Below, in pieces: positions 10,001-13,000 of a stretch of DNA of 64,000 bases. The notes under the pieces were generated by a model. The model was not told where the DNA came from, did not search any database, and was given only the letters and a program-made list of their open reading frames with translations. Source of the DNA: Okamejei kenojei (taxonomy: Eukaryota); the NCBI GenBank assembly GCA_035221665.1, contig CM069168.1:2914001-2978000 (forward strand), written 5' to 3'. Position 1 is the stretch's first letter, and each line of letters begins with the position of its first letter. Position numbers and translations under genes: made by a program.

Positions 10001-13000
10001 CCTTGCCCGGCCTGTCAGTTTAGGTGGATGGCCATGTCTTGGTAGGTTTGCAGTTGTGCCATACTCTTTCCATTTTCGGATGATGGATTGAACAGTGCTT
10101 CGTGAGATGTTCAAAGCTTGGGATATTTTTTTATAACCTAACCCTGCTTTAAACTTTTCCACAACTTTATCCCTGACCTGTCTGGTGTGTTCCTTGGGCT
10201 TCATTATGCTGTTTGTTCACTAATGTTCTCTTACAAAACTCTGAGGCCTTCACAGAACAGCTGTATTTATACTGAGATTAGATTACACACAAGTGGACTC
10301 TATTTACTAATTAGGTGACTTCTGAAGGCAATTGGTTTCACTGGATTTTATTTAGGGGTATCAGAGTAAAGGGGGCTGAATACTTTTGCACGCCACACTT
10401 TTCAGTTTTTTATTTGTAAAAAAATTTGAAAACCATGTATCATTTTCCTTCCACTTCACAATTATGCGCCACTTTGTGTTGGTCTATCACATAAAATCCC
10501 AATAAAATACATTTACGTTTGTGGTTGTAACGTGACAAAATGTGGAAAAGTTCAAGGGGTATGAAAACTTTTGCAAGCCACTGTAAATTAAACTGGCAAC
10601 GGGAGGGAAACCTGAGCAGGAAGATTGAAGTTGAAAAAACGAGTAAAAATAAAATAACAGGAAACTAAAAGACAACGTAGGACAGGGAGTTCAGGAGTGC
10701 AAGGCAAACAGGAGTATCATGTGAAATAATGTTAAAATAACCAGCAATTTTAAAGGGCAAACCTTAAGGCACAAAGTGCTGGAGTAACACGGCAAGTCAA
10801 GCAGCATTTCTGGAGCACATGGATAGGTGGCGTTTCAGTTTGGGCCCAATGTGTTCACGATAAGGTAGATGAATTCAATTTGCAAATAGATTTAACTAGC
10901 GATGCCACCATTGTGATTAAGGAGATATTATTGCAGGGTGTGAAAATGGACCATCTAGAGGTACTTAAAGTTCAGGAATGTTAGGGAAAGAAGGTGGAAT
11001 AGCATTGTTACTAAAAGAAGAAAATTATACAATAGCGAGGGAGTATATTAGCTCCAAGAAACTGCTATGAAATCTGTATGAGAGCATCTAGAAAACACAA
11101 GGACAGAACATGTTAGCAACGGTTGTATTGGAGACTCCCGAACATCAGTGGTGATGTAGGGAGTAGCGGACAGGGTGGTGAAGAAGGCATCAAACTTGCT
11201 GGAATGTTTTGAGATGCAAATAGATGAGGGAGAACCAGTGAATCTGTGGGACTCCAGGGCCAACATATGAAGATTTGCTCGTTTAGGCTTTAGAGGAGAC
11301 TTTGGAATAATGGGATCCCATAAAATCCTTCAAAATTCTAACAGGACAGGTTAGATGGAAGAAGATGTTCCTGATGACCTGGAGTCCACACCAGGGGTTA
11401 CAGTTTCAAAGATATGGGGTAAGCATTTAAGACTGAGATCAGGAGAAATTCCTTCTGAGATAACAAGAAATAGAATGATGAACCTGTGGAATCCTTTAGC
11501 ACTGAAAAATATCAAGCTACTTGATTACATGTATTCAGTAAGGAATTGGATATTGTTCATGTGGTTAGAGGGATAACATATGGGGGAAGGCTGGAACAGG
11601 AGACTGAATATGGATGGTCAGCCAGGATCATGCTGTATGGTGGAGCAGCACAAACTATCGAATAGCCGTCTTCTTCTTGTTGCATATTGCGTGCACAGCC
11701 TAAAGTTGTAGGACAACCTGTTCTATTTGATCTTATTTGATTGTGCACGCTGGGTTGATTGCATTCGTTGAAACAGGGTGGACCACGTGAAGGTTGCAAT
11801 CTTCCGCCCCATCAAATAGCCAACTCCTGTTTACTATTTTCCATGTTTCTATGTAAAGATTCACACAATATATTCAGGGTTGAAGTAGATGTTTGGTCTA
11901 AAGGGGTAATCGAACATTACGGGGCTGAGGTTTGAAGGCTCTGCTATTTTTATTGCTAGATGGCTCTGCCATAGATATGCACCCAGCATTTTTGCATCAT
12001 GCTTCCACTATATCTTGTCGCAAACAATGAAGATTCACCTCTTATCTCTCCCTCTTAGGAAGAGAAACTTGAACTCCAGAAGTTGTTGGAAAGAGTTCCT
12101 ATTCCCGTCAAAGAAAGCATTGAAGAGCCGAGTGCAAAGGTATGGCAGAGATCTGGCTGTTTCAACCAAGTTCTTTCCTTCTTAACTATGCACATGCTGT
12201 GGAGTCAGGCTTGGTAGAAATGGACATTAAGGGATTCAAAAGTTGAGAATGATGCTGTGTGATATCATCATTTGGACATTTGAAATGCACGTCTACAGCT
12301 GCTCTCCAGAAGCACTTTGGGGCGTTTTCCAGTTGTCATGTGCTGGGAAAAGAGGAATTGGCATCTCTGACAGGCCTGGAATGTGTAGTGGAGAGTAAAC
12401 ACAAAATGCTGGAGTAACTCAGCGGGACAGGCAGCATCTCTGTAGAGAAGGAATGGGGAATGTTTCAGATCGAGACAAGAGATGCTGTCTGTCCCACTGG
12501 GCATTTTGTATCTGCCTTCGATTTAAACCAGCATCTACATTTCTTGCCTACAACCCATTCCTTCTCTCCAGAAATGCTTGCCTGTCCCGCTGAGTTACTC
12601 CAGCATTTTGTGTCTACCTTTGATTTAAACCAGCATCTGCAGTTCTTTCCTACACGTGTAGTGGAGAACAAGATAGGAGCAAGGAGGTCCTACTGCAGTT
12701 GTACATGACCCTGGTGAGACCGCACCTGGAGTATTGTGTGCAATTTTGGTCTCCTAATTTGAGGAAGAACATTATTGCTATTGAGGGAGTGCAGCATAGG
12801 TTCACCAGGTTAATTTCCGGGATGGCGGGACTGACATATGATGAAAGAATGGGTCAACTGGGCTTGTATTCACTGGAATTTAGAAGGATGAGAGGATATC
12901 TTATAGAAACATATACAATGATTAAAGGATTGGACAGGGTAGATGCAGGCAAAATGTTCCCGATGTTGGGGGAGTCCAGAACCAGGTGTCACAGTTTAAG

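Follow-up and report, generated by a model that had tools for sequence, protein, structure and literature searches.

A 143-base retroposon with a predicted P4-less HDV-like ribozyme head, probably derived from a Vingi-type LINE, in Okamejei kenojei

The insertion in the window and the fold of its 5′ end

The 64-kb window of Okamejei kenojei DNA (the whole stretch that was analysed) contains a short retroposon insertion on the minus strand, bounded by a target-site duplication, as well as a second copy of the same family. The features are given below in the direction of the minus strand, G1 being the first base of the insertion.

11811..11821, minus strand: target-site duplication, 5′ copy (11 bp), adjoining G1
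11668..11810, minus strand: 143-base retroposon insertion
11757..11810, minus strand: 54-nt P4-less HDV-like ribozyme fold, corresponding to the 5′ end of the parent LINE, with the predicted cut just before 11810
11804..11810, minus strand: P1 5′ strand, beginning with G1; position 5 (11806) is C here and T in 60/65 copies
11795..11801, minus strand: P2 5′ strand
11782..11794, minus strand: P3 (3 bp, arms 11794-11792 and 11784-11782) with a 7-nt L3
11775..11781, minus strand: P1 3′ strand, its last base being the U of the G1.U wobble
11768..11774, minus strand: G of a predicted one-pair P1.1, followed by a 6-nt loop in place of P4
11764..11767, minus strand: J4/2 (CGAA), with the predicted catalytic C at 11767
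11757..11763, minus strand: P2 3′ strand
11717..11756, minus strand: remainder of the LINE 5′ UTR, containing the 5′ arm of a stem whose partner is in the 3′ part
11668..11716, minus strand: 3′ end of the parent LINE, with its final codons, stop codon TAG (11702-11700), a short 3′ UTR and a (GAA)n tail
11657..11667, minus strand: target-site duplication, 3′ copy
26154..26291, minus strand: second copy of the family, 85% identical and of another subfamily, with a damaged 5′ end and P3

The two arms of the duplication (11821-11811 and 11667-11657) differ by one mismatch, and G1 directly adjoins the duplication, as the initial annotation had described. In three other organisms, contigs extend across both junctions of the insertion, and in these contigs the mismatched base reads as a match; as the contigs span the same insertion, it predates the split of these organisms.

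Read from 11810, the minus strand provides P1, P2, P3, L3 and J4/2 in the nested double-pseudoknot order of the HDV ribozyme, and the helices, the 7-nt L3 and the J4/2 sequence CGAA are located where they had been placed in the initial annotation. With 7 nt between P1 and J4/2 and 54 nt in total, the fold lacks P4 and thus corresponds to the minimal form of HDV-like ribozymes, although the phage location or 3′ tRNA neighbour typical of that (theta) form was absent, the element being a genomic retroposon in a window where ARAGORN found no tRNA. In most family copies the 6-nt loop replacing P4 reads U-UUCG-A. Within region 11717..11756, agreement with the parent LINE covers the first ~26 nt, and the last ~14 nt are specific to the subfamily.

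A descriptor search and an Rfam search had both been proposed as checks of the fold, with different outcomes. The descriptor, which was composed after the element had been seen, had its sole match in the 64-kb window at the 11757..11810 head and none in 40 dinucleotide shuffles. The Rfam search with the window element returned nothing at gathering level, the best alignment being to RF02682 (13.1 bits, E 5.1, cut-off 44); the Rfam HDV-type models incorporate P4. Pseudoknot-free folding recovered P2 and the downstream stem, but not P1 (z -0.71), which had a probability of only 0.02-0.06 under such folding.

The P1 helix of the window copy contains one mismatch (C-A), which had been attributed to CpG decay. 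This explanation is too simple, as the mismatch is private to the window copy and absent from the family majority: the predominance of T at position 5 indicates that the pair in the source P1 was U.G or U-A, with U.G present in the main subfamily and U-A in the parent LINE. The window copy, with this mismatch in P1, is an old and decayed one, and would probably cut weakly or not at all.

The absence of a Pol III A box was borne out, with the best match in the element having three mismatches and being no better than in shuffled sequences. An origin from a tRNA or another Pol III gene was rejected on this basis, together with the lack of a tRNA and of any Rfam gathering match. The designation as a SINE is a loose one; the head is not derived from tRNA, 5S or 7SL RNA with A and B boxes, but is a LINE's own 5′ end, and the element is an internally deleted LINE.

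A dispersed family of short copies and its parent LINE

The proposal that the element represents a ribozyme-headed non-coding family was upheld by collecting copies by BLAST from the source genome (G000, 2.76 Gb), which gave 2261 candidates, and by 960 exact matches to a 43-nt core, compared with 0 for the reversed control. We estimate the family size at ~25,000 copies from nine distinct full copies that happened to lie in ~1.0 Mb of flanking sequence, rather than from summed contig depths, and the range is wide (about 11,000-47,000) because only nine chance copies were counted (ten were listed, two of which, L307 and L333, are one copy).

The 5′ ends of the copies pile up at G1, as had been predicted. 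Among copies chosen by the internal core alone, 26/29 have a G at position 1 and 22/29 start with GGGG. Target-site duplications, mostly 8-13 bp in length, were found for 48/65 matches, which have GAA tails, and in 34 of these 48 the duplication ends at most one base from G1. Contig loose ends also accumulate at 11810/11811 in the three other organisms. The short element comprises at least three subfamilies, and the diagnostic changes in their heads are located at J1/2, at a pair-keeping site of P1 and at the free second base of J4/2. Covariation within a single family was discarded as a test of the fold, since the changes between such copies were mostly CpG decay and showed no covariation. 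A second, unrelated P4-less short family is also present in the genome.

The parent was sought with a tail-anchored pattern that excluded the element's own upstream letters. This pattern identified 30 loci, which included a third subfamily and two LINE 3′ ends, while two head-anchored exclusion patterns (24 and 18 matches) returned only damaged short copies and no LINE. The LINE thus found, designated family E, carries the last 25-49 bases of the element in 25/30 copies, displaced in one of these. A near-full-length, decayed family E copy of ~3.1 kb (L333) has the element head from position 10, followed by an ATG near +100, endonuclease and reverse transcriptase (RT) motifs, a C-terminal Cys/His motif and the shared tail. 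The same head is located upstream of the ORF in L338, and four further copies (L334, L331, L319 and L275) have it inverted at their 5′ end, as would be expected from 5′ inversion during insertion. Family E thus shares both head and tail with the element, as had been proposed for the LINE that would mobilise it.

One subfamily of the short element matches the LINE at 83/88 bases of the 5′ end and 38/43 of the 3′ end, and the window copy at 65/74 and 36/45, respectively, with ~14 middle bases of the window subfamily that have no match in the identified parent or in the other subfamily. Both ends of one autonomous LINE are joined and the ORF is lost, and on sequence comparison the short element is an internally deleted LINE (SIDE-like), consisting of the first ~95 and the last ~45 bases of the parent.

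No intact parent was seen among the family E copies, which are 86-90% alike. An intact relative of 1019 aa (P0002, 75% identical) contains only the PF03372, PF14529 and PF00078 domains, representing endonuclease and RT without RNase H; no RNase H family was present among the 120 relatives listed, save for one LTR-type fusion. P0002 has a likeness of 37-46% to most copies of three other LINE families of this genome (A, B and C), and of 24-30% to RTE loci. Searches of the PDB matched only distant RTs, and there was no named Vingi sequence among the database matches to the parent and its relatives. The protein motifs of the parent are ones that we take to be of Vingi type, and these, the domain layout and the distance from RTE make it likely that the parent is a Vingi-type LINE. 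The layout agrees with the definition of Vingi given in passages of PMC13708176 (one compact ORF encoding an APE endonuclease and an RT but lacking RNase H), and is not diagnostic by itself, as RTE shares it.

Families A, B and C came to light via one RTE locus, which contained a fragment of a different LINE, and the protein of this LINE led to them. The young family B (99.3% alike) has its last 16 bases in common with the element and was considered as parent. It was rejected, as its head differs at 6 pairs, which makes it a related family that could at most help in trans.

Conserved heads and the proposed mode of mobilisation

Families A, B and C were found by their protein and then traced to their 5′ ends, where the HDV fold is present with different letters and with a P4 region. 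All four Vingi-type families traced to the 5′ end therefore start with an HDV fold. Among the four lineages of this genome, 68/68 pair cells are kept and 11/17 pairs are changed on both sides, and with seven lineages, including three from metagenomes, 119/119 pair cells hold (shuffle maximum 97 in 20,000, in a test which ignores the relatedness of the lineages) and 13/17 pairs are two-sided, although these counts are inflated, upper-end values, as the copies were picked as well-folded representatives and the metagenome lineages by their fold. Compensatory change in P1-P3, which had been named as a test of the ribozyme, is thus seen across related heads. The G1.pyrimidine pair and the C as first base of J4/2 are kept in 7/7 lineages.

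The descriptor gave 108 matches in 339 fetched sequences (1.2 Mb), some of which are alternative registers of one head, and 107 of the 108 fall on heads, either those of the short element or those of Vingi-type LINEs. Among distant metagenome relatives, the strict descriptor was passed in 3/20 upstream windows, two of these being the same sequence, with 0 passes for the A, G and T decoys, the other strand, 30 shuffles and 93 ORF-internal windows. The relaxed descriptor was passed in only 4/19 distant relatives with upstream DNA, and in two of these four the T decoy tied by a register shift.

The 25 bases following the ribozyme pair best with the 3′ end of their own family in 4/4 families. The shuffle p values of this 5′-3′ UTR pairing were 0.007, 0.0007, 0.04 and 0.09 on family majorities, and the duplex was weak on single decayed copies (p 0.04-0.21). 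We treat the pairing as a lead only, since it was first noticed by eye and two of the helices are palindromic.

We are fairly confident that the window element is non-coding and arose by internal deletion from a LINE of the same genome, likely of Vingi type, and that its predicted 54-base P4-less HDV-like head would free the RNA from read-through host transcripts at G1. Transcription of a source copy would be driven by a promoter of the host or by the copy's own 5′ end, and cleavage by the ribozyme would leave a 5′-OH end at G1. The LINE protein would then bind the 3′ UTR and the GAA tail, perhaps aided by pairing of the 5′ and 3′ UTRs, and the short RNA would be copied by target-primed reverse transcription, nearly always to the very end because it is so short. 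Self-cleavage at G1 and copying by the LINE protein from the GAA tail are inferred by analogy with the R2 SIDEs and with L1Tc/NARTc/SIDER; the R2 SIDE heads and the NARTc/SIDER heads cleave in vitro, as reported in parts of PMC3414825 and PMC4035085.

The accumulation of 5′ ends at G1 could likewise result from a fixed transcription start, and an internal Pol II promoter starting at G1, with or without cleavage (a Pr77-like dual element), is a possible though less probable determinant of the 5′ end. In the sister clade Ingi, the first 77 nt are both promoter and ribozyme according to sections of PMC4035085, and Kojima 2018 (PMC5786205) considers it very likely, in the portion dealing with bipartite LINEs, that these are transcribed by Pol II. 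The description of our element as promoterless is accordingly doubtful, by analogy with the dual nature of the Ingi 5′ hallmark. A promoter would leave unexplained the two-sided changes in P1-P3, the fixed G1.pyrimidine pair and the fixed C of J4/2, and the letters of the head vary widely between families while the fold persists. The compensatory changes and the fixed J4/2 C suggest that a promoter may add to cleavage, but would hardly replace it.

Self-cleavage of the short head itself could also be questioned, as the ribozyme may be real in the P4-bearing LINE families, while the P4-less form is slow or inactive and kept for protein binding or for protection of the end. In favour of this, P4 is gone from the head, P1.1 is predicted to have a single pair, P1 of the main subfamily contains a second wobble, and the element scores low in Rfam. 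We nevertheless regard this as quite improbable, since the autonomous parent itself bears the P4-less head, the positions of the subfamily-diagnostic changes spare the fold's pairs, an unrelated P4-less short family exists in the same genome, and natural P4-less forms do cleave (passages of PMC10879173). An RTE-type partner, as had been suggested originally, would make the element SINE-like and mobilised by an RTE LINE, and it is true that the genome contains a (GAA)n-tailed, RTE-like family (DUF6451) and that RTE elements are known ribozyme carriers (PMC5786205, in part). As an origin of the element this is refuted: a BLAST comparison of 30 RTE loci with the element gave no match, RTE has a different 3′ end, the intact relative of the parent is closer to the other Vingi-type families than to the RTE loci, and both ends of the element are found on a non-RTE LINE. 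Occasional copying of the element in trans by RTE is possible. The derivation from a likely Vingi-type LINE with a predicted self-cleaving head remains our preferred reading.

Relation to known elements and to the CPEB3 ribozyme

The class to which the element belongs, that of ribozyme-headed internally deleted LINEs, is already known from R2 and Ingi. The R2 SIDEs of Drosophila described by Eickbush and Eickbush 2012 (PMC3414825, in part) are also short and internally deleted, with a 5′ HDV-like ribozyme and a LINE 3′ end; like the window family they have no Pol III head, and are copied in trans, which for the window family is assumed by analogy. Their size is greater (R2Dwi_SIDE has 529 bp), they occur in small numbers and only in rDNA, and their P4 is complete, whereas the window family is 143 bp in length, dispersed, present in ~25,000 copies, P4-less, and has an APE-type parent. 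NARTc, RIME and SIDER (Pr77/L1TcRz) are short derivatives of the Ingi clade with an HDV-like head that was shown to cleave, while here the fold is predicted; in contrast to the window family, they have protist hosts, a 77-nt hallmark with P4, parents with RNase H and a demonstrated promoter (portions of PMC4035085). Of the same clade, as judged by domain layout, are non-autonomous internal-deletion derivatives of Vingi, for example those of Vingi-1_EE (Kojima 2011, as cited in a section of PMC5786205), which have the same bipartite origin.

Kojima 2018 (PMC5786205) describes bipartite derivatives of RTE, Ingi, Vingi and R2, and the relevant passage lists six ribozyme-bearing clades without Vingi among them. 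HDV-like ribozymes have also been reported in RTE and baggins elements, as well as in some metazoan LINEs and SINEs (PMC6765202, in part). The predicted head described here would add a ribozyme to the Vingi clade. The minimal (theta) HDV-like ribozymes of Kienbeck 2024 (PMC10879173) share with it the lack of P4, the short J1/2 and L4, and the C as first base of J4/2, but nearly 99% of them are found in Caudoviricetes phages, many beside tRNAs, and the passages concerned report none from the added human, mouse or protist genomes, while here the form heads an animal retrotransposon. With these heads, an animal genome would carry the HDV ribozyme in its smallest natural form, at a density of roughly one copy per 100 kb. 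Copies in sense orientation within introns could cut pre-mRNA, which predicts a testable orientation bias. The 143-base natural substrate also marks the minimal cis elements; the 5′ and 3′ UTRs of Vingi are used in gene-writing platforms, and the ribozyme passages of PMC13708176 concern R2 only.

The CPEB3 ribozyme (RF00622; PMC10919898, in part) has the same 7-nt L3 and the same G-U after P1 in its printed consensus as the window element, from which it differs in the letters of P1, P2 and P3 and in the presence of P4. It is a conserved intronic ribozyme, as opposed to the look-alikes found here, which are multi-copy LINE 5′ ends. Neither the window element nor the heads of families A, B, C and E matched RF00622 (cut-off 35 bits), and to the CPEB3-like LINE heads the window element is no more than a cousin. 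Such heads do occur in the same genome, where 30 of 42 RF00622 matches were over the cut-off (59 candidates scored, best 66.8 bits), compared with 0/14 control genomes, and in a metagenome relative (L400), which scored 55.6 bits upstream of its ORF. Four of the 30 loci over the cut-off run directly into a Vingi-type ORF, about ten abut such an ORF in inverted orientation, and six belong to a second P4-less, GAA-tailed short family. At one locus (L420), the sequence agrees with the printed RF00622 consensus at 44 of the first 46 letters of the ribozyme, those of the P4 stem among them, and at another (L421) at 17 of the last 18. The difference in P2 is compensatory.

Comparison with the printed RF00622 consensus thus suggests that the mammalian CPEB3 ribozyme is a domesticated Vingi 5′ end. 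The likeness could instead reflect convergence on the HDV fold, given that every HDV-like ribozyme is constrained in its G-rich P1, its L3 and its J4/2, that many families offer many chances of a match, and that RF00622 was matched neither by the window element nor by families A, B and C. We consider convergence improbable, because the letters of P2 and P4 are free to vary between families, and yet L420, with its P4 stem, and L421 agree closely with the consensus, which makes descent the likelier explanation. The origin of the CPEB3 ribozyme is not named in the literature passages on the subject; Vingi is not mentioned in the corresponding parts of PMC10919898 and of a 2026 preprint, and a word search of PMC8233481 found neither 'origin' nor 'transpos'.

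We lean, with some reserve, towards the wider reading that Vingi-type LINEs are general carriers of HDV-like ribozymes in animals, of which one lineage would have given rise to the 54-nt P4-less form and to tens of thousands of mini-elements, while the 5′ end of another would have become the CPEB3 ribozyme in early mammals, and of which the UTRs may pair. The human genome retains traces of Vingi (PMC5753468, in part), and the near-identity of LINE heads and CPEB3 ribozyme makes the origin of the mammalian ribozyme directly testable.

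Predicted ribozyme heads on other retroposon families

The short GAA-tailed retroposon with a predicted P4-less HDV-like ribozyme head (window 11668-11810, minus strand) is accompanied by a second short family of approximately 170 nt, which likewise carries a GAA tail, duplications and a P4-less head (loci L440-L443, L445 and L447). This second head scored above the cut-off of the CPEB3 ribozyme model RF00622 (36-40 bits, cut-off 35 bits). Searching the 2.76 Gb genome (G000) with the same model identified at least three further LINE families with 5′ heads that are near-copies of the mammalian CPEB3 ribozyme, reaching up to 66.8 bits (L419-L439, L444, L446 and L448), and several of these heads enter or adjoin an ORF that is Vingi-type by its domain layout and protein motifs. 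On visual inspection, a distant relative at L339 (positions ~520-700) appears to carry an HDV-like head whose L3/P3 region is interrupted by a long insertion; this candidate failed both the strict and the relaxed descriptors.

5′ junctions and inverted heads

The base preceding the first ribozyme nucleotide (G1) was T in 44 of 73 copies of the short element, with C in 15, A in 9 and G in 5, and in some copies this T lies outside the duplication. The bias may reflect either an untemplated base added by the reverse transcriptase or a target preference. The ribozyme head was inverted at the 5′ end of four LINE copies (L334, L331, L319 and L275), as well as at about 10 of the RF00622 loci, and the frequency of such inversions among LINE copies looks high.

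Complementary LINE ends and a possible helper

In each of the LINE families A, B, C and E, the last being the parent of the short element, the 3′ end is complementary to the family's own 5′ UTR, and the two would form perfect helices of 6-8 bp with letters that differ by family. This complementarity suggests end-to-end pairing of the RNA in these families. The short element has corresponding segments:

Window 11741-11750, 5′ segment, complementary to 11689-11698, 3′ segment

Family B (L153-L158, L160, L164 and L166-L177) is a young LINE, with copies 99.3% alike and a 778-aa open frame in L153. It shares the last 16 bases of the short element and could still be able to copy it in trans. An RTE-like family (DUF6451, L085-L114) has a GAA tail, together with a small 3′ hairpin.

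Other mobile elements in the window

Of the 64 long frames in the window, 34 were scanned, and none of these matched a host protein family; several other mobile elements were detected.

Mobile-element features in the window
752-1306, minus strand: RNase H frame
8962-10588: Tc1/Sleeping Beauty-like transposon, inverted repeats of 225 bp, 96% complementary
9404-10216: N-terminal transposase frame of this transposon
41517-42512, 46201-47496, 57727-59370 and 60484-60816: other LINE reverse transcriptase or endonuclease fragments
61949-63033: LTR-type element fragments, aspartyl protease and reverse transcriptase-RNase H
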